Source of the DNA: a virus
Lineage: Duplodnaviria; Heunggongvirae; Uroviricota; Caudoviricetes
Length of the DNA stretch: 45,626 bases
Direction: 5' to 3' (one strand)
IMG/VR virus record: IMGVR_UViG_2579779076_000011
In this document: positions 26,227 to 45,626 of the stretch, in pieces
How the letters are laid out: each line of letters opens with the position of its first letter
How positions within the stretch are numbered: position 1 is the stretch's first letter
Made by a program: the position numbers and the translations under genes
The notes under the pieces: model-generated
Seen by the model: the letters and a program-made list of their open reading frames with translations, nothing else
Told to the model about the DNA's origin: nothing
Databases searched by the model: none

Positions 26227-28078
26227 GTGGGCTGATAAATATTTTTATCTCCCTGAGGGCTCCAGCCACATCGCTGGCCACTGGACGACTCAGCCGGTCC
26301 AGGTAGTGATGCTCAATATGATGACTAACGACGCGATAAAAATCGTGTCTGTTCGCAAATCAGCTCGTCTCGGTTATACAAAAATACTCGTCGCGGCGCT
26401 GCTCTATTTCGCTGAGCACAAAAAACGTAGTGCCGTGGTCTATCAGCCTATCGATGACGAATCGGATGGATTTGTTGCCGACGAGGTTGACCCCGCTATC
26501 GCCGAAATGCCGGTGATTCAGAAAATTTTCCCCGACTGGGATAAAAGCAACGAGCGTAACAATCTCCAGCGTAAAGAAATGAGCGGCGCGATTATTGATT
26601 TTCGCGGCGCGAGTGCACCAGGAAATTTCCGGCGACTAACGAAACAGGTTGTCGAGGGTGACGAAGTTGACGGCTGGCCGCTGGAAGTTGCCAAAAAAGG
26701 CAAAGGCGAGGGCTCGCCCATCGAACTGGCGCTCGTTCGAATTAAAGGGGCAGCGTACCCGAAGGCGATTTTCGGCTCGACGCCAACCGTCACCGGAAAA
26801 AGTCATATTGAAATGCTGGAGGATGCCGCTGACCTGACGTTTCGTTTTTACCTGAAATGTCCGCATTGTGGCGAGGAGCAGGTCCTGGTATTTGGTTTCG
26901 ACGGCATCGAATATGGCCTCAAATGGGATAATAGCCTGCAGACAAATGAGGCGAAATCGTCGTCCGCGTATTACCAGTGCTGCCACTGTCCTGAGCATTT
27001 TTACTATCGCGATCTCGAAAAAATGGAGCTCGCGGGGCGCTGGATAGCAGAGGACTGCACCTGGACGCGGGACGGTATTCGTTTTTTTGATCACGACGGT
27101 GGTGTCGTTCGCGCGCCGAAACACGCGGCGATCGTGATAAACGCCATGTATTCGCTGAATCTCGACGGCTGGGGCGAGATTGTCAGCGAGTGGCTGAAAG
27201 CGAAGGGCGATCCGCTCAAAGAAAAGACGTTTCATAACACGACGCTCGGCGAACTCTGGAGTGACGTAGCCAGCGAGCAGCTGGAGCACGATATTCTGGT
27301 TAATCGCCGGGAAAAATACGCCAGCCAGGTTCCTGACGGTGTTGTTTATCTGACCGGCGGCATCGACTCTCAGACGTCCGGTCGCTACGAGTGTTACGTG
27401 TGGGGCTGGGGAGTGGAGGAGGAGTGCTGGCTGATTGATAAAACAATCGTCCTCGGTCGCTACGACGAGGAGGACACGCTGCAGCGCGTCGACGGAGTGA
27501 TTCGCAAACAATACCGGCGCAGCGACGGGACCACAATCGGCGTCAGTCGCTGGGCGTGGGATACCGGTGGTATAGATGCGCAGGTCGTTTATAACCGCTC
27601 GCTGAAACTCGGTCCGCTGTGGGTCATTCCAATTAAAGGTGCGAGTTCATACGGTCAGCCAGTCGTAAATATGCCGCGTACACGTAACGCGAATAAAGTC
27701 TATTTGTCGTTAATCGGTACTGATACGGCAAAAGATTTGCTCGCAATGCGCCTGCCGCTGGAACCCGATTCTAAATCGGCGACACCAAGTGCGATTCATT
27801 TTCCCAACGACGACGAAATATTCGGCACGACAGAGGCAAAACAGCTCGTCTCTGAAGTTCTGATCCCGAAACTGATTAACGGTCGCGTCGTTTATCGCTG
27901 GGACAACCAGGGCCGGCGAAATGAGGCGCTCGACTGCTGGGTATACGCGCTGGCAGCGCTACGTATCAGTAAAATTCGTTTCCAGCTCAATCTCGAGACG
28001 CTCGCTGAGCAACGGAAAAAATCACAAAACAAACTGTCTCTCGAGGAGATGGCCAGAATGCTCGGAGGGAGCTCATGA
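26153..28078 (+). CDS. terminase large subunit (lambda gpA family)
   Basis: Collinear similarity to lambda gpA from memory: VEWADKYFYLP, PHCGEEQ, NTTLGE, YLTGGIDSQ, WVIPIKGAS, GTDTAKD, RRNEALDCWVYALAALRIS. Start taken at ATG 26153 (ORF track from 26114). Confidence 0.9.
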   Translation: MSAISNAISTGLNPLRVTIPMTGVEWADKYFYLPEGSSHIAGHWTTQPVQVVMLNMMTNDAIKIVSVRKSARLGYTKILVAALLYFAEHKKRSAVVYQPIDDESDGFVADEVDPAIAEMPVIQKIFPDWDKSNERNNLQRKEMSGAIIDFRGASAPGNFRRLTKQVVEGDEVDGWPLEVAKKGKGEGSPIELALVRIKGAAYPKAIFGSTPTVTGKSHIEMLEDAADLTFRFYLKCPHCGEEQVLVFGFDGIEYGLKWDNSLQTNEAKSSSAYYQCCHCPEHFYYRDLEKMELAGRWIAEDCTWTRDGIRFFDHDGGVVRAPKHAAIVINAMYSLNLDGWGEIVSEWLKAKGDPLKEKTFHNTTLGELWSDVASEQLEHDILVNRREKYASQVPDGVVYLTGGIDSQTSGRYECYVWGWGVEEECWLIDKTIVLGRYDEEDTLQRVDGVIRKQYRRSDGTTIGVSRWAWDTGGIDAQVVYNRSLKLGPLWVIPIKGASSYGQPVVNMPRTRNANKVYLSLIGTDTAKDLLAMRLPLEPDSKSATPSAIHFPNDDEIFGTTEAKQLVSEVLIPKLINGRVVYRWDNQGRRNEALDCWVYALAALRISKIRFQLNLETLAEQRKKSQNKLSLEEMARMLGGSS

Positions 28079-28308
28079 TGTCGCGCGAGGTTTTAACAGA
28101 ACGGCTGCTGGAAGCTGAAATTGCCCTGCACAAATTATTAACGGGTAGATCGACTGTATCGCTGTCTCACGGCGATTCAGCGGGAAATAACCGGAGCTAT
28201 CAATACTCACAGGCGAGTATTGAACAGCTCCGAACGTACATTATCGAGCTGAAATCACAGCTCGGTCTGAGTACGGGACGCCGCCGTCCCGTGGGAGTTC
28301 GATTATGA
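28075..28308 (+). CDS. head-tail joining protein (lambda gpW-like)
   Basis: 77 aa; pattern LEAEIALHKLLTG..QLRTYIIELKSQLG..RRRP parallels lambda W; sits between terminase and portal. Confidence 0.8.
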   Translation: MMSREVLTERLLEAEIALHKLLTGRSTVSLSHGDSAGNNRSYQYSQASIEQLRTYIIELKSQLGLSTGRRRPVGVRL

Positions 28309-29876
28309 CTGCTCAGCAGTTGCTCGGGCCTGACGGTAAAACGCCACTACGCCGTTACGCGGGGTATAACGGCGGCGGTCCCGGCTTCGGTGGCCAGCTG
28401 ATTGACTGGAATGCACCACAGCAAAGCGCCGATGCGGCACTGCTGCCTAATTTTTATCGCGGTAACGCGCGAGCAGACGATCTCGTTCGTAATAACGGCG
28501 TCGCGTCGAACGCCGTGCAGCTGCATCAGGATCATATCGTCGGCAATCTGTTTAAGTTGAGTTATCGCCCTAACTGGCGTTACATCGGGATATCTCGCGA
28601 GGACGCCAGGGCGCTGGCGCGTGACGTTGAGGTCGCGTGGACTGAATACGCCGAGGACCCTCACTGCACGATTGATATCGAGCGGAAACGGACGTTCACA
28701 ATGATGATTCGCGAAGGCGTGGCCACTCACGCGTTCAACGGTGAAACCTGCGTACAACCGGTGTGGGAGAGCTGCGCCGGCAGCGTTTTTCGGACGCGAT
28801 TCAAAATGGTCTCACCGAAACGAATTCGAAATCCTGGCTACGCAGCTGACACTCAATTTCGCCGCGCCGGTGTTGATATCGATAAAAACGGGGCCGCGGT
28901 TGGGTACTGGATAGCCGAGGATACCTATCCCCTCGGCGGAGTTGGTAAATGCCGGCGCATACCAGCAAAACTCAGCAGCGGCAGACACGCATTCATTCAC
29001 ATATTCGAGCCGCTCGAGGACGGACAAACCCGCGGAGATAACATTTTTTACAGCGTAATGGAGCGGCTGAAAATGCTCGATACGCTGCAGCAAACACAGC
29101 TGCAGAGCGCCATCGTGAAGGCGATGTACGCCGCCACAATCGAATCAGAGCTCGACAGCCAGCAGGCGTTTGAATATATCGCCGGCGCGGGTACTGATAT
29201 CGACTCGAACCCGCTGAGTTCGTTTATTCAGAGTTACGTGACGTACTACAACGGCGCAAATATCAAGCTCGGTGGTGTGAAAGTTCCCCACCTGCATCCC
29301 GGCGACAAACTCAGTTTACAGACCGCTCAGAATGCTGATGCTGGTTTCAGTTCGCTGGAAAAATCACTCCTGCGTTACGTTGCCGCTGGCGTCGGCGCGT
29401 CATATGAGGAACTGAGTCGGGACTACAGCCAGGTCAGTTACTCCAGCGCGCGGGCCAGCGCAAACGTGAGCTGGCGTTTTTTCATGGGCCGTCGACGTTT
29501 TATCGCCGCACGACAGGCGTCACTGATGTTCTGCTGCTGGTTTGAGGAAGCTCTGGCGCGCGGAGTTATCACCCTGCCACGCTCAGCGGTCCGGTCGTTT
29601 TATGAAGCGCGGAACTCCTGGACGAACGCGCTCTGGATCGGCGCTGGTCGCATGGCGATTGATGGGCTGAAAGAGGTTCAGGAGAGCGCCATGCGCATCA
29701 CGACTGGCCTCAGCACGTATCAGAACGAACTCGCGCTGCAGGGGCAGGACTACGAGGAGGTCATGGAACAACAGGAATACGAAATTCAGCGCCGGCGCGA
29801 AATGGGGCTGAGCGAACCATCCTGGTCAGTATCTCACCCCTCAAATACCAACGATAACGGCTGGGGAGGTAACTGA
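28305..29876 (+). CDS. portal protein (lambda gpB-like)
   Basis: 523 aa gene following gpW-like with 4 nt overlap; lambda B-type organisation. Confidence 0.85.
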   Translation: MTAQQLLGPDGKTPLRRYAGYNGGGPGFGGQLIDWNAPQQSADAALLPNFYRGNARADDLVRNNGVASNAVQLHQDHIVGNLFKLSYRPNWRYIGISREDARALARDVEVAWTEYAEDPHCTIDIERKRTFTMMIREGVATHAFNGETCVQPVWESCAGSVFRTRFKMVSPKRIRNPGYAADTQFRRAGVDIDKNGAAVGYWIAEDTYPLGGVGKCRRIPAKLSSGRHAFIHIFEPLEDGQTRGDNIFYSVMERLKMLDTLQQTQLQSAIVKAMYAATIESELDSQQAFEYIAGAGTDIDSNPLSSFIQSYVTYYNGANIKLGGVKVPHLHPGDKLSLQTAQNADAGFSSLEKSLLRYVAAGVGASYEELSRDYSQVSYSSARASANVSWRFFMGRRRFIAARQASLMFCCWFEEALARGVITLPRSAVRSFYEARNSWTNALWIGAGRMAIDGLKEVQESAMRITTGLSTYQNELALQGQDYEEVMEQQEYEIQRRREMGLSEPSWSVSHPSNTNDNGWGGN

Positions 29877-31515: not shown

Positions 31516-31539
31516 TAGCAAAAAAAAAACTCAAAACAA

Positions 31540-31561
31540 GCCGCCTCCGGGCGGTTTTTTT
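31540..31561 (+). terminator. intrinsic terminator-like hairpin between D-like and E-like genes
   Basis: GCCGCC-TCCG-GGCGG followed by TTTTTTT. Confidence 0.5.
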
Positions 31562-31576
31562 ATACAGGATATATAA

Positions 31577-32611
31577 ATGAGCGATTCGTTTACTACGTCA
31601 GAACTGATTACCGCAACGCAGCAGGTATTTAAGTTCAATCCGTTGTTTTTAAGATTGTTTTTCCGTGAGACCTACACGTTTACGAGCGAAGAGGTTTTTC
31701 TGGATAAAATCCCGGGCAAAGTCAATATGGCGGTATATTGCGCCCCGATGATCACCGGCAAAGTTGACCGCACTCGCGGCTATTCAACGAACCACTTTAA
31801 ACCGGGTTACACGAAACCGAAACACACGATCAATCCGAATATGAGCATCAAGCGCGCCGCCGGTGAGCAAATTGGCCAGCCAGAAACGCCGGTCGAACGT
31901 CGTGCAAAAATCATCATGCAGAATTTGCTCGACGAGGAGCTCAGCATCAGCCAGCTCGAAGAGTTCCAGGCAGTGCAGGCGGTTCTGTACGGTAAATACA
32001 CCGTTTCCGGCAGCAATATCGAGACCTATGAGATCGACATGAGCCGCAGCGCGACGAATAACGTCACTCAGTCCGGTTCGACCGCCTGGTCGACTCAGGA
32101 CGCGGAAACGTATGACCCGAGCGACGATATTGAATCCTATGCAGACCTCGCCTCCGGTGCGGTTAACGTGATCATCATGGACGGTAAAGCCTGGAAGCAG
32201 CTTAAACGCTTTAAAAAATTCTGGACGGCACTGGATACGCGCCGCGGCTCAAACAGTCAGCTCGAAGTCGCGCTGAAAAACCTGGGCGATGTCGTTAGCT
32301 TTAAGGGCTATTACGGCGACACGGCGCTGTTCGTTTACAAGGGTCAATATATTGACCCGCTAATAGGCACTGAAACGCGTTATATGCCGGATAACACGAT
32401 GATCCTGGGCAACACAAAAAATCGCGGGCTCCGCACCTATGGCGCGATCCAGGACGAGGACGCGCTGAAAGAGGGTATCTGCGAAGCCACGCGCTATCCA
32501 AAAGTCTGGACCACTACCGGTGATCCGGCAGTGACGCAAACAATGACGCAATCCGCGCCAGCAATGGTCCTCACGGACGCCGACGCGTTCGTTGTCGTAA
32601 AAATCGCGTAA
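31577..32611 (+). CDS. major capsid protein (lambda gpE-like)
   Basis: 344 aa; FKFNPLFLRLFFRE, PGYTKPKH, RGLRTYG, TTGDPA parallel lambda E. Confidence 0.9.
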   Translation: MSDSFTTSELITATQQVFKFNPLFLRLFFRETYTFTSEEVFLDKIPGKVNMAVYCAPMITGKVDRTRGYSTNHFKPGYTKPKHTINPNMSIKRAAGEQIGQPETPVERRAKIIMQNLLDEELSISQLEEFQAVQAVLYGKYTVSGSNIETYEIDMSRSATNNVTQSGSTAWSTQDAETYDPSDDIESYADLASGAVNVIIMDGKAWKQLKRFKKFWTALDTRRGSNSQLEVALKNLGDVVSFKGYYGDTALFVYKGQYIDPLIGTETRYMPDNTMILGNTKNRGLRTYGAIQDEDALKEGICEATRYPKVWTTTGDPAVTQTMTQSAPAMVLTDADAFVVVKIA

Positions 32612-32632
32612 GAGCCGAAAGGCTCTTTTTTG
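32611..32632 (+). terminator. intrinsic terminator after major capsid gene
   Basis: AGAGCC-GAAA-GGCTCT followed by TTTTTT, starting at the capsid stop codon. Confidence 0.5.
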
Positions 32633-32645
32633 TTAAGGAATCAAC

Positions 32646-33059
32646 ATGAGCACAAAAACAGAATTGCTGGCGCGCATTGACGATCTGAGCGCTCAGCTTG
32701 GTCGCGAATTACCGCGCAGCGGGACTATTGCGGAACTGGAATCAATCGTCGCCGGCGCTGAGTCAGAGCTCGATATTCTGAACGAACAATCCAGCGACGC
32801 GAGTGATGCCGACACCAATGAGAGCGCATTAGATGAAACTGATGATGACGGTGTCGAACAACAGTCAATCGCCAGTACTACGCCACAATCAGAACTGTCT
32901 CCCGCTACGCGCCGCGTCAAGTTGCGTAACACGCTGGACATTTATCACTACGTGAACGCGCGTCGCGTTCGCGAGATTGTTGCCGCTGGTCGTGAAATCG
33001 TTGTCGATTCACCGGAGGTCGCAGACCTTATTGCAGCCGATCACGTTTACGCTCTATGA
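32646..33059 (+). CDS. DNA packaging / head completion protein (lambda FI-like, tentative)
   Basis: 137 aa acidic protein at the lambda FI position; N-terminus MSTKTELLARIDDLSAQLGREL parallels lambda FI. Confidence 0.5.
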   Translation: MSTKTELLARIDDLSAQLGRELPRSGTIAELESIVAGAESELDILNEQSSDASDADTNESALDETDDDGVEQQSIASTTPQSELSPATRRVKLRNTLDIYHYVNARRVREIVAAGREIVVDSPEVADLIAADHVYAL

Positions 33060-33436
33060 GCTACTACGACGACCTCCGGGCCGGCGACGAGGAGACGATT
33101 CGTGAGTGGGGACGGCCAGTCAAATTACGCGGTAAAGCTGACCCCATTATCGCTATTTTCAACGAGCCTTACGCGCGCGTTGACGTTCCTCACGCTGGTT
33201 TTATTACCGGCACAGTAACGAGCCTGACGGCGCTCTCTGACGACGTTGCTGGCGTTGTTGCGCGTGACGTCGTCCAGGTCCCAAAGCAGCGCAGTATCGC
33301 TGCTGACGGCTCTGTTACCTGGTCTGGCTGGACCGATTACGTGGTTAAAGAGCCTCAACCGGATGGCATCGGTCTCACGAATATTTTTTTAGAGCCTCAC
33401 ACGTCCAGCGAAAACAGCGAGTATTCAAAATACTAA
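33056..33436 (+). CDS. head-tail connector protein (FII-position, tentative)
   Basis: 126 aa at the FII position; ATGA overlap with upstream gene; sequence not obviously lambda FII. Confidence 0.4.
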   Translation: MSYYDDLRAGDEETIREWGRPVKLRGKADPIIAIFNEPYARVDVPHAGFITGTVTSLTALSDDVAGVVARDVVQVPKQRSIAADGSVTWSGWTDYVVKEPQPDGIGLTNIFLEPHTSSENSEYSKY

Positions 33437-33457
33437 GTGGGACCGCGGTCCCACTTA
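33434..33457. repeat. perfect 24-bp palindrome at the head/tail module junction
   Basis: TAAGTGGGACCGCGGTCCCACTTA begins at the stop codon of the FII-position gene and is followed by a G-rich SD and a GTG start. Confidence 0.5.
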
Positions 33458-33467
33458 AGGGGGGACC

Positions 33468-34148
33468 GTGGCCGATTTACGTAGTAACGCGCAGATGTTC
33501 GATATCGATGTTTCGGCGCTGGAGCAACTTAGAGTCGAAATTAGCGCGACGCAACATCAGATGCTGATGGCATACAACAGGGCGCTGAACCGAACTGCAA
33601 AGCATATGCACCGGGTCTCGGTGGGAATGATCATTGAATCGCTGGCGGTTAAAGGGCGTAAGGCCGCAGAAAAACGCGTAAAACCGTTCGTCAAAATCCG
33701 GAACATATCAAAAGAAACTGCAGGAGACCTGAGCAGCGCCAAGCTCTGGTACGGTCTGAATGATTTCCGGGTATCTGAGCTAAAGGGGCGATTACAAAAT
33801 CCACGGAGGCAAAAACAGCCTCGCGATCCTGAGACCGGTCAATTTTTGAAAACAAAAAAAGGCGCTCGAGGGGCAACTTTTACACCCAAAAGTGCAGGGC
33901 TGGCGATGCTGAGCTGGCCCGATTCATTCGTAGCGAAACGCTACGGTGCGAAAAGTGTCTGGATTCGACTGGCTCGCGGAGGAATCGAAGAGGCTCGCGT
34001 ACCGGTGCACGAAGCGCTGGAGGATGCTATCGATGATTATATTTTTGAAAATATTGGCACCGTGTTCATGGGTTTTTTTGAACAGGATTTGCGTGGTCGC
34101 GTGAAAGGTAATGTCCACGTAGACCCTAAAACAGGTAAACGATTATGA
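33468..34148 (+). CDS. hypothetical structural protein (possible neck/tail completion)
   Basis: 226 aa, GTG start after GGGGGGA; position between head and baseplate genes. Confidence 0.35.
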   Translation: MADLRSNAQMFDIDVSALEQLRVEISATQHQMLMAYNRALNRTAKHMHRVSVGMIIESLAVKGRKAAEKRVKPFVKIRNISKETAGDLSSAKLWYGLNDFRVSELKGRLQNPRRQKQPRDPETGQFLKTKKGARGATFTPKSAGLAMLSWPDSFVAKRYGAKSVWIRLARGGIEEARVPVHEALEDAIDDYIFENIGTVFMGFFEQDLRGRVKGNVHVDPKTGKRL

Positions 34149-41047: not shown

Positions 41048-42688
41048 ATGGCTATTTCTCAAAACTTTAAAACGCAGGTTGTATTTGGGGGAAGAATAGA
41101 CCCGTCGTTTCGGCGCGGTACAACAGAACTCAACGATGCAATTCGGCAGACGTCGTCTACTGTCGGAAAATTAACGAAAAGCCAGGATAAATTAAAAGAC
41201 AAAATCGCAGCAATGAAACTGGCGGGTAAAGACGTTTCTGATTTATCTGCTCAGTATCAAAAGCTGGACCGTCGGATAAAAGCGACAACACAGGACCAGG
41301 AAGCTCTGAATACTCAGCTCGCCAAAAAACAGCGGCTGGAGAAGTGGACGGGGCGCGCAAAAGGTGCTGCAAAATGGGGAGGGCGAGCCGCCGCAGGTGC
41401 GGTGAGGGCCACGGGACGGGGTATCAAATGGGGGACGCTGGGGGCCGTGGGTCTGCTCGGCGGCGCGGCTGCTGGCGCGTTGGCAATGAATGCAGAGACG
41501 TCAGAAAAACTCGGTCTGGCGAAGTCCTACGGTGTTGGCATCGAAAAATACGCTGCGTGGGAAAATATTGGTAAAGCTGCAGGGCTGAATGGCGAAAACG
41601 TAGGAGATCTGTCGGAGGAGTTGACTAATAAAATCGGGGAGGTTGGAAACGAAAAAAACCTGAACCCCATGTTGTTTCAAATTGGCCTGACAAAAAAACG
41701 GATGGCTAAATGGGATCGAGAAAAACAGTTCAATGAAGTTATGCGGCGTATCTCTGAAATGAAGGATGATCAACAGGCGGCGAGTCTGGCTGATCAGCTC
41801 ATGGGGGGGGAAGCTAATAAAATAATGACTTATATGCGGGCGACTGGTAAAAGCTGGGAGCAGACTCTGTCGGACGCTCAAAAATCAAACCTGCTAACGA
41901 AAGAAGGGGCTGAGGGTGCAGCGCGCGCGCACGTATCCGTCACGAATCTGTGGGGGGCAATCACATCGGGGCTGGCAGATACTCTCGGGAAAATCGGAGG
42001 GGAACTCGCGCCGACGTTTGACGCTATGCGAGACGGGCTGGCATCCTGGTTTAAAGAGAATCAAGGGGGGGTTGTTGATAGTATTAAAGAATGGGTTAAG
42101 CCAGAAAATATGAAAAAAATGTGGGAGGGGATAGTCAGTTTTGGCGAGGCGTGCGTTAAATTCGGAAAAATAATTTGGGCAGTCGTAAAAAAACTGGAGT
42201 GGTTAATACCGGACGAGAAAACAGACGAGGAGCAGCGCGTATATAACGAAGAATATAATAAGGCGTATCAGGAATTCATGGATGGCGGAGGAAAATATTC
42301 ACCAAACCCAGGAATGGCGGCGGATAATGTTGCAAAAGCAAAAGCCGCCGAAGCCGTGGATAATATGCGACACCCTGAACGTCTTGCTCGTGCAAAATCA
42401 CAGGCTGAATCACTGCTCTCGTTTGCTAACCCGTTTACTGGATTAATAAATAAAGGCTCAACGCCTGAATCACAAAACTCAGCAACGTTGAATATTGACG
42501 CGCTGAGACAAGCAGTCGCAACTCCAGCGCCAGAGCAAAACAATAAAATTGAAATCAATATTATCGGAGCGGCAGATCCACAATCAACACAGCAGGCTGC
42601 TGCATCGGGTGTGCTCGACGGGCTGAGACAAGTTGCGAGTTCGTACAACCGTGGTGCGATGTTTGATAAACCAGCGGCGGCGGGGTGA
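41048..42688 (+). CDS. tail tape measure protein
   Basis: 546 aa; coiled N-terminal region, Gly/Ala-rich hydrophobic stretch; position after the chaperone. Confidence 0.8.
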   Translation: MAISQNFKTQVVFGGRIDPSFRRGTTELNDAIRQTSSTVGKLTKSQDKLKDKIAAMKLAGKDVSDLSAQYQKLDRRIKATTQDQEALNTQLAKKQRLEKWTGRAKGAAKWGGRAAAGAVRATGRGIKWGTLGAVGLLGGAAAGALAMNAETSEKLGLAKSYGVGIEKYAAWENIGKAAGLNGENVGDLSEELTNKIGEVGNEKNLNPMLFQIGLTKKRMAKWDREKQFNEVMRRISEMKDDQQAASLADQLMGGEANKIMTYMRATGKSWEQTLSDAQKSNLLTKEGAEGAARAHVSVTNLWGAITSGLADTLGKIGGELAPTFDAMRDGLASWFKENQGGVVDSIKEWVKPENMKKMWEGIVSFGEACVKFGKIIWAVVKKLEWLIPDEKTDEEQRVYNEEYNKAYQEFMDGGGKYSPNPGMAADNVAKAKAAEAVDNMRHPERLARAKSQAESLLSFANPFTGLINKGSTPESQNSATLNIDALRQAVATPAPEQNNKIEINIIGAADPQSTQQAAASGVLDGLRQVASSYNRGAMFDKPAAAG

Positions 42689-44615: not shown

Positions 44616-45626
44616 ATGGCAATAATATCGGGTGTATACGCAAATGGGGTCGGCGAGCCCGTTGTCGGCGTTCAGTTAGTATTAACAGCACGGGTCACGA
44701 GTTCACGCGTAGTAATGACCACTGTTGTAGAGCAAGAAACAGGCGCGGCGGGTGAGTACAAATTTGATATGAATCCCGGAGTTTACGTTGTCACTGCTAG
44801 TGCGGCATATCTCGGCGTGATTAACGTTAACCCGGACAGTGTTGACGGCACGTTAAACGACTATTTGACTAATTTTAGCGCAGACGAACTGACGCCAGCT
44901 GCGTTGGCGGAGATTCAAGAGCTAGTATCGGCTGCGAAAAATGCTGCAGCAGCAGCAGACGCCAGCGCCAGTGCGGCGCACACATCTGAAACTAACAGCG
45001 CGAACAGCGCAGCAGCAGCAGCAGCGGCAGCCGCCAGTCTTGACTCGTCAAAATTCGCAAAACTCGATAAGGAAAATGAATTTCTGGAAAAAAACAAATT
45101 CAAAAAATTGGCGACATTTTTGTTGGGTGCCACGTTTGACTCACCGGCGACATTTAATAACAATATCCAGATAGGGAAAAATTCAGCAGGCAACACAAAT
45201 ACAGCATCATGCTATACTGACTTTGATTTATACTTCGGTCGTTCTGTCCGAATTTATTCCACTACAGTTGACGGGGTCAAAAAAAACGGTCAATTAGCAT
45301 TTTGGAGTCCCGGAGGAATATTTCCTGACGCATATATAGAACGCAAGGAAAATTCTTATTTGCAGATTTACGATCACAACGCCTCTAGCCTAAAAATTGA
45401 CTTTCCCTACGGTGCTGCAAATGGTCTGCAATACGTTGGGGCTGATAGGATTGCCCGATCAATATTTCATGATGGGCATCTCCCGCCCGCAGCAGCTGTA
45501 GTGAGTAAACTACCCACAGGAGCAGAACCTAAGACCGCGTTTTACTTCATCAGCGGAGACGAAAAACTTTATTTTGCATACGGAAATAAAAAATATTATA
45601 TACCCGTGATCATTGATGATGATTGA
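44616..45626 (+). CDS. side tail fibre protein (lambda Stf-like N-terminus) with short divergent AT-rich C-terminus
   Basis: N-terminal MAIISGVYANGVGEPV..GTLNDYL followed by an Ala/Ser-rich repeat (DASASAAHTSETNSANSAAAAAAAAAS) parallel to lambda Stf; only 336 aa; C-terminal third low-GC. Confidence 0.7.
   Translation: MAIISGVYANGVGEPVVGVQLVLTARVTSSRVVMTTVVEQETGAAGEYKFDMNPGVYVVTASAAYLGVINVNPDSVDGTLNDYLTNFSADELTPAALAEIQELVSAAKNAAAAADASASAAHTSETNSANSAAAAAAAAASLDSSKFAKLDKENEFLEKNKFKKLATFLLGATFDSPATFNNNIQIGKNSAGNTNTASCYTDFDLYFGRSVRIYSTTVDGVKKNGQLAFWSPGGIFPDAYIERKENSYLQIYDHNASSLKIDFPYGAANGLQYVGADRIARSIFHDGHLPPAAAVVSKLPTGAEPKTAFYFISGDEKLYFAYGNKKYYIPVIIDDD

Follow-up and report, generated by a model that had tools for sequence, protein, structure and literature searches.

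A perfect palindrome with an F-type SopB site sequence at the head/tail junction of a sop-less Escherichia coli prophage: a candidate orphan centromere repeat and intercistronic hairpin

The head/tail junction palindrome and its match to the F-type SopB site

The DNA analyzed in the present study is the IMG/VR record IMGVR_UViG_2579779076_000011 (45,626 nucleotides; the whole stretch is referred to as the window), which is a prophage of Escherichia coli O139:H28 E24377A (100% identity). At its head/tail junction, between an FII-like gene and a gpZ-like gene, lies a perfect 24-bp palindrome, the core of which has the sequence of a binding site for SopB, the ParB protein of the F-plasmid Sop system. 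The features of this junction are as follows, protein lengths being given in amino acids (aa).

33056-33436, + strand: FII-like head-closure gene, 126 aa (Pfam Phage_attach; PHROG 'head closure Hc1')
33434-33457, no strand: perfect 24-bp palindrome with the halves TAAGTGGGACCG and CGGTCCCACTTA, from the sequence
33434-33459, no strand: TAAG direct repeats (33434-33437 and 33456-33459) that bracket a 22-bp presence/absence polymorphism
33438-33453, no strand: 16-bp core TGGGACC-GC-GGTCCCA, an exact match to the F-plasmid SopB consensus
33443-33471, + strand: predicted alternative helix of CCGCGGUCCC (33443-33452) with GGGACCGUGG (33462-33471), which would sequester the Shine-Dalgarno (SD) sequence and the GTG
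33457-33464, + strand: putative SD sequence AAGGGGGG of the gpZ-like gene, from a reading of the sequence
33468-34148, + strand: gpZ-like tail-completion gene, 226 aa, GTG start (PHROG 'tail completion or Neck1'; Pfam Minor_tail_Z)

The original prediction, which was made from the letters of the window, described a perfect inverted repeat of this length that begins at the stop codon of the gene in the FII position and is followed directly by an SD sequence and a GTG start, and this description was confirmed. The sequence TAAGTGGGACCGCGGTCCCACTTA at exactly 33434-33457 is its own reverse complement, and its first three bases are the TAA stop codon (33434-33436) of the FII-like gene. Its last base (33457) is at the same time the first base of the SD sequence, and 10 nt separate its end from the GTG at 33468, which is also the start annotated in RefSeq. 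The palindrome is real and non-random. It is the sole perfect palindrome with arms of at least 10 nt in the window, in which approximately 0.003 perfect palindromes of 24 bp are expected by chance (~45,600 positions x 4^-12), and the 18-mer core is present in one copy versus 0.03 expected when up to three mismatches are allowed. The window has no further copies of the core of the kind that would point to a genomic repeat family (REP/BIME or MITE), and a search of Rfam with a threshold as lenient as E <= 10 gave no match for the palindrome. The major capsid gene contains another perfect palindrome, GGGTCAATATATTGACCC (9+9), at 32341-32358.

The inner 16 bp of the junction palindrome read TGGGACCGCGGTCCCA. 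The consensus of the SopB/sopC family is TGGGACC-Pu-Py-GGTCCCA (PMC3177203), for which the F-plasmid oligonucleotide sopC2 is a further source (PMC3597684). Within each arm of the SopB site, binding depends on positions 2, 4, 5, 6, and 7 but tolerates changes at positions 1 and 3; in vitro, the 16 bp are enough for specific binding, and the bases beyond them add nothing to specificity (PMC3177203). The window core matches this consensus, with all of the required positions intact in each arm. Regarding its centre, a G-C probe, in which the A of the A-C consensus was changed to G, bound SopB as well as the consensus in surface plasmon resonance imaging (SPRi), and a TC centre, which is not Pu-Py, gave approximately 50% of the signal (PMC3177203). 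The core and its flanking G and C constitute an 18-mer that is scattered in N15-like phage-plasmids. The probability that a given perfect palindrome has a SopB core with a Pu-Py centre is approximately 4^-7 x 1/2 = 3e-5, and a coincidental match is improbable even when the many motifs that might have been recognized are considered, yet not negligible. Among the three roles that had been proposed for the palindrome, namely, a protein-binding site, a stable mRNA stem-loop, and a recombination hotspot, the first is the most supported, through the identity of the inner 16 bp with the F-type SopB consensus.

A cognate protein is encoded in the same strain. The plasmid pETEC_74 of E24377A, which appears in Table 1 of Pillet et al. 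(PMC3177203), has sopA and a 323-aa sopB, just downstream of which are two consensus sites TGGGACCGTGGTCCCA and a degenerate third. Its SopB differs by one substitution from the crystallized F SopB fragment (residues ~154-323), which comprises the whole DNA-binding domain. Since 16 bp suffice in vitro and pETEC_74 encodes an F-type SopB, this protein should, by analogy, occupy the prophage site in E24377A.

Sites of the same type were found in phage-plasmids. When IMG/VR was scanned for the core with its centre left unconstrained, GTGGGACCNNGGTCCCAC, 47 sites were returned in 35 stretches, most of which are unrelated in context to the E24377A prophage, and several contigs were multi-copy. The multi-copy contigs are N15-like linear phage-plasmids with a protelomerase, a RepA of ~1,340 aa, and a CI-like repressor (Pfam and tblastn); a megablast search of two such IMG/VR loci against INPHARED gave no match. 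They encode SopB homologues that are 52-53% identical to F SopB. The phage-plasmids with F-type sites have the F-like recognition helix ISRKII, the N15 sequence being IDRNIV, which fits the published finding that the residues flanking Arg190 determine F versus N15 specificity (PMC2910045). F-consensus sites were previously described by Pillet et al. as 'dispersed over the genome' of three bacteriophages (PMC3177203). The dispersed centromere sites of N15 itself, IR1-IR4, are GTGCGACCNNGGTCGCAC (PMC7205306). In the N15 record (L137; loci in IMG/VR and relatives are given here as L numbers), they are found inside repA, beyond Q, at a distance of 37 bp upstream from the annotated late-promoter -35 (IR3, 41125-41140), and within a stem-loop that the depositors labelled as a putative rho-independent terminator (IR4, 45562-45577). 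The N15-like IMG/VR contig L107 has two F-type SopB sites, 45 bp apart, at 2474-2536 between the major capsid gene and FI, a slot in which N15 and the window have a terminator-like hairpin, and in L113, an F-type repeat directly follows the TAA of a putative small-terminase gene, which was identified by eye. Sop and the IR sites reportedly have effects on the late genes of N15 (Ravin, Rech and Lane, 2008).

The head module of the prophage is of the lambda/N15 type (terS, terL, gpW, a split portal, an S49 protease, gpD-like, gpE-like, FI, and FII-like genes) and is combined with a contractile tail of the P2 type; a Q antiterminator lies upstream, and an integrase and a tRNA-Ser gene are located at one prophage end. 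The portal gene is interrupted by an IS21-family insertion sequence (ISEc62, istA/istB; 26915-28881), and the prophage is defective because of this split. Two copies of an IstB of the same accession and IstA proteins of the same or a near-identical accession are annotated on pETEC_74. Relatives of the prophage (~91.5% identity) are present in 446 of 5,426 complete E. coli genomes (~8%), and the family uses at least two different insertion sites. Regarding the gpZ-like protein, 3 of 33 homologues match Pfam Minor_tail_Z.

The predicted hairpin and the junction alleles of relatives

In the + strand RNA, the palindrome is predicted to form a 10-bp stem with a CGCG loop (-15.7 kcal/mol). The tail that follows is AGGGGGGACC, which has no T-run, and, in agreement with the original prediction, the hairpin is not a canonical rho-independent terminator. 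It is the third intercistronic hairpin of the head operon and stands at the end of the head genes, the other two being as follows.

31538-31557, + strand: first hairpin, directly downstream of the decoration-protein gene and followed by a T-run
32610-32627, + strand: second hairpin, directly downstream of the major capsid gene and again followed by a T-run

In N15, stem-loops are annotated at both of these places, downstream of its decoration and capsid genes. On the - strand, the junction hairpin is followed by TATTTTGAAT (33425-33433), such that a simple scan calls a terminator. This T-run falls within the last codons of the FII-like gene (...YSKY and stop), which are conserved and also present in relatives that have no hairpin.

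Relatives carry a series of alleles at the junction, which are listed below with the effect on SopB that is expected from the published binding data. Counts for E. coli refer to complete genomes with the prophage, many of which are probably clonal.

Centre GC (the window, L002/3/17): consensus
Centre GT, read as AC on the opposite strand (L010/11): consensus
Centre TC, not Pu-Py (420 of 435 matching E. coli genomes): approximately 50% of the SPRi signal expected
GGTCCTA, position 2 in one arm (L012-15): binding expected to be reduced, some one-arm changes lowering it ~100-fold
TGGGAAC, position 6 in one arm (L016/18, L024): binding expected to be reduced, some one-arm changes lowering it ~100-fold
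TGGGCCC/GGGCCCA, position 5 in both arms (L022/23): binding expected to be lost

When these alleles are read as + strand RNA, the position-2 change is a G.U pair, the TGA stop codon of L022/23 leads to a second G.U pair, the double change at position 5 is a compensatory A-U to C-G replacement, and the position-6 change enlarges the loop and does nothing more; in a - strand transcript, both G.U pairs would become A.C mismatches. Relatives in which the gpZ-like protein is 63-69% identical have other hairpins at the same junction, which are unrelated to the palindrome and begin at the stop codon; they are TAGCGGGTCCGCCCGCTA in L026/28 and AGCGGGCTTGCCCGCT followed by eight T, a canonical terminator, in L032. 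Judged from the sequences of these alleles, what relatives preserve is the pairing of the hairpin rather than the bases that are critical for SopB.

Some junctions are empty. The metagenomic relative L194 has flanks identical to those of the common allele and the junction TACTAAG|GGGGAACCGTGG, with exactly 22 bp fewer between the TAAG repeats, and in two more distant relatives, E. whittamii (L005) and L025, the stop codon runs straight into the SD sequence. No empty junction was found among the ~445 complete E. coli genomes that carry the prophage. Slippage between direct repeats flanking a palindrome is an established deletion route, and a loss of 22 bp in this manner at the TAAG repeats is the simplest route to the L194 junction. 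L194 was obtained from a metagenome scan with a degenerate junction pattern, the output of which was mostly noise with approximately 12 true relatives; a scan of genome contigs gave no more than 4 loci.

Regarding the origin of the palindrome, its left arm and centre (TAAG-TGGGACCGCGG) form a near-direct repeat of the ribosome-binding site (RBS) and start region, TAAGGGGGGACCGTGG, and the segment 33434-33471 consequently has an A-B-A' layout, which may be a trace of the origin of the element or lineage-specific drift. An origin in situ through an inverted duplication of the RBS region was considered on the basis of this resemblance; it would demand several additional symmetrical changes, and in most relatives, the left arm is less like the RBS. 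The compensatory variant GTGGGCCC..GGGCCCAC was examined as an alternative centromere type and rejected, as it was not multi-copy in phage-plasmid-like contigs; it was found in small contigs of ~2 kb, in a low-GC phage group, and in the E24377A prophage family. As a separate observation, the 5.4-kb IMG/VR contig L141 has three copies of GTGGGCCCAAGGGCCCAC at 1259, 3284, and 5306, with a spacing of ~2.02 kb, and the same sequence is present in several contigs of ~2.1 kb; the layout of L141 suggests a small circular element in concatemeric form.

Readings of the palindrome and their relative weight

The palindrome has, in our estimation, an even chance of being an orphan centromere repeat of the F/N15 Sop family that is also an intercistronic mRNA hairpin. 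As DNA, its inner 16 bp would be the exact site at which a SopB (ParB) dimer binds. Because the prophage is without sopA and sopB, is integrated, and has a single site, SopB could come only in trans, from an IncF-type plasmid (pETEC_74 in the present case) or an N15-like phage-plasmid, and published biochemistry suggests that it would bind and that ParB would spread from the head/tail junction. As RNA, a 10-bp hairpin would extend from the FII-like stop codon and abut the RBS of the gpZ-like gene, thereby filling the type of slot that is taken by the terminator-like hairpins after the decoration and capsid genes. Since relatives keep the pairing rather than the SopB-critical bases, the maintained role is most likely at the RNA level, possibly as a hairpin that would serve the head-gene mRNA as a 3' barrier or processing site and that terminating ribosomes would melt just before the next RBS. 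The capacity to bind SopB may have been inherited from, or may be convergent with, the centromere sites of phage-plasmids and may matter only in Sop+ hosts. That the element is truly related to Sop repeats by descent or selection, while chiefly serving as an RNA hairpin, is a view on which our confidence is evenly divided.

A number of results weigh against a Sop repeat. The commonest allele has a TC centre and therefore falls outside the Pu-Py consensus. Relatives are altered at the SopB-critical positions 2, 6, and 5 (the latter in both arms), and none is altered at the tolerated positions 1 or 3; therefore, SopB binding is not what is conserved. The original prediction also proposed checking whether the palindrome is conserved at such junctions and regarded its absence from close relatives with the same gene order, together with a lack of effect on downstream expression, as evidence against the proposed roles, and it is absent from L194, L005, and L025 despite the same order; the palindrome is dispensable, not essential, because of these absences. 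All 448 places at which the prophage family was found in complete E. coli genomes are chromosomal. There is one Sop site in the window with up to four mismatches allowed and one in the 42-kb stretch of a relative with up to two. No partition gene (ParB/SopB) is present in the RefSeq annotation of the prophage or of a relative, tblastn searches of the window with N15 and pETEC_74 SopB gave no match, and no contig of the prophage family was among the SopB-encoding loci in IMG/VR. The prophage accordingly lacks further hallmarks of a centromere, namely, a cognate sopAB on the replicon, multiple sites, and a partitioned extrachromosomal replicon. The head genes are ~57% identical to those of N15, and the FII-like protein has no BLAST match to N15 gp10; a recent import from a phage-plasmid has no support from the flanks because the head genes are only distantly related to those of N15.

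Chance and the RNA-level evidence also have to be considered here. Control palindromes of the same length occurred in 0-15 IMG/VR stretches, corresponding to ~5-13 independent chance occurrences (a composition-matched permutation in 13 stretches, single-copy, and swapped-order arms in none), and a coincidence is accordingly possible. The identical 18-mer, GTGGGACCGCGGTCCCAC, is present as an intergenic hairpin in G4-like microviruses, which have no partition biology; it is located in an unannotated intergenic region (2563-2580 in phage G4, L103) in more than 300 records, with an ATG 19 nt downstream that is preceded by AAGGA. We take the open reading frame downstream of it to be the capsid gene. 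This occurrence may be due to chance; alternatively, it may indicate that something else favours the hairpin. The stable mRNA stem-loop that was proposed for the palindrome is plausible from its predicted stability and from the pairing kept by one compensatory and two G.U changes. However, the covariation is weak; 96.6% of cells are paired, but 54 of 500 shuffles were as good, there being only nine distinct alleles.

The alternative that comes closest is an ordinary intercistronic hairpin, which would act as a barrier to 3' exonucleases, a pause site, or a weak terminator on a Q-antiterminated late transcript, its identity with the SopB site being coincidental. We consider it possible but unlikely. 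It would account for a stable structure that starts at a stop codon as the third in a series, for pairing that persists while the SopB-critical bases drift, for the different hairpins in the same slot in L026/28/32, one of them a canonical terminator, and for the use of the identical 18-mer by G4-like microviruses and the numbers obtained with control palindromes. However, coincidence would have to produce an exact match at 16 of 16 positions together with the flanking G and C and a Pu-Py centre, at the probability per palindrome given above, in a temperate phage of E. coli, the gene pool in which such sites are used, and N15-like elements also have this 18-mer in late-operon slots of that type; furthermore, whatever the origin of the identity, 16 bp suffice in vitro, so that SopB should, by analogy, bind in F+ cells. 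At the opposite end, a docking site selected for SopB, which would modulate late expression, destabilize IncF plasmids by titrating SopB, or position phage DNA, appears very improbable. The exact consensus, the cognate SopB in the same strain, the reported precedent of Sop/IR effects on the late genes of N15, and a family spread over ~8% of complete E. coli genomes are in its favour, whereas relatives keep neither the critical positions nor the Pu-Py centre, and the site is single, chromosomal, and unaccompanied by sop genes.

Two further explanations concern translation and the DNA itself. In a translational switch, the right arm would pair either with the left arm, leaving the RBS free, or with the SD sequence and GTG, sequestering the RBS; we regard this as improbable, and the same low confidence attaches to the coupling that it would entail, in which translation of the gpZ-like gene depends on ribosomes terminating at the FII-like stop codon. 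The alternative helix (33443-33452 with 33462-33471) is the minimum free energy fold of the window sequence, at -24.8 kcal/mol versus -15.7 for the palindrome hairpin, and the strongest local RNA structure of the late region, and the cost of opening the RBS is 15.6 kcal/mol in the window versus 6.1-6.4 in the empty alleles. However, the opening costs of the commonest TC allele (7.4), L010 (5.4), and L022 (6.3) are similar to those of the empty alleles, the helix has no compensatory change in relatives and pairs no better than shuffles, and its strong form requires GGGGGGACC, which was seen only in window-type sequences, the window prophage itself being defective. A conserved RBS-sequestering switch was rejected on the pair counts and on the opening energies across alleles, and the alternative fold is probably lineage-specific rather than a selected function. 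A cruciform or recombination hotspot at the head/tail boundary, or an antisense terminator on the - strand, is scarcely credible. The 22-bp indel between the TAAG repeats indicates that a precise loss or gain is possible, and the - strand hairpin precedes TATTTTGAAT; however, sliding identity against six relatives has no breakpoint at the palindrome, 33400-33475 is 91-97% identical in five close relatives, and the order of the FII-like and gpZ-like genes is collinear in all relatives, including those in which the gpZ-like protein is only 63% identical. The recombination hotspot of the original prediction is not supported on these grounds. The nearest mosaic patches are hypervariable segments in central FI (32725-32875) and the N-terminal part of the gpZ-like gene (33550-33700), which are 58-88% identical to close relatives in the midst of DNA that is 91-99% identical. 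The - strand terminator is unlikely because its T-run codons are conserved in hairpin-less relatives, the G.U-type alleles would have A.C mismatches, and no - strand gene is nearby.

If the palindrome is a Sop repeat, its significance extends to plasmid biology. It is conceivable, though rather doubtful, that a prophage family found in ~8% of genomes, many of them from human clinical isolates, has an orphan site to which SopB of IncF plasmids and N15-like phage-plasmids would bind with high affinity and that plasmid and prophage engage in cross-talk through it. In F+ hosts, SopB would then nucleate at the site and spread over the head/tail junction, which would tie late expression or induction to whether the plasmid is present, and amplified phage DNA would titrate SopB and destabilize the plasmid. 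ParB/parS systems are treated as private to their replicon, and a parS_F in a chromosomal prophage would recruit a partition protein to foreign DNA, possible consequences being the silencing or activation of late genes, altered plasmid stability, and extra ParB foci, artefactual or real. The natural allelic series (the GC/GT and TC centres, arm mutants, the GGGCCC hairpin, and the 22-bp deletion) separates functions at the DNA level from those at the RNA level. If the match is a coincidence, the junction is still a clear case of a conserved yet dispensable intercistronic hairpin between head and tail genes.

Comparison with known partition sites and phage hairpins

The closest counterpart of the site is sopC of F, which is of the identical 16-bp class and is represented in the same strain by the TGGGACCGTGGTCCCA sites adjoining sopAB on pETEC_74. 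In F, the sites are in tandem 43-bp units next to sopAB on a low-copy plasmid, whereas the prophage has one isolated site within an operon, in a palindrome that extends 4 bp further on each side than SopB needs. The IR1-IR4 sites of N15 and those of N15-like elements are more similar in their arrangement; they are isolated 18-bp palindromes of the form G-TG(C/G)GACC-NN-GGTC(G/C)CA-C in a lambda-like genome and are often in intercistronic or terminator-like positions among the late genes. These elements are, however, linear plasmids with a protelomerase, repA, sopAB, and ~4-7 sites each, whereas the prophage is integrated and has one site.

As an RNA structure, the palindrome resembles the late-operon hairpins of lambda and N15, which are GC-rich sense-strand hairpins between late structural genes, and the hairpin of G4-like phages, which has the identical 18-mer in an intergenic position upstream of an SD sequence and ATG. 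The prophage hairpin differs from these in that it has no U-tract, includes a stop codon in its stem, and coincides with the sequence of a protein-binding site. In RNA coliphages, an RBS-sequestering hairpin enforces translational coupling between the coat and replicase genes, and in the window, the SD sequence and start codon are similarly predicted to form a helix with an upstream segment, which would be opened by a terminating ribosome, but this sequestering helix is not conserved in relatives. No account of orphan Sop sites in integrated prophages was found in our literature search, and the palindrome is best described as a new setting for a known kind of site, an integrated sop-less prophage for which a host plasmid would supply the cognate protein.

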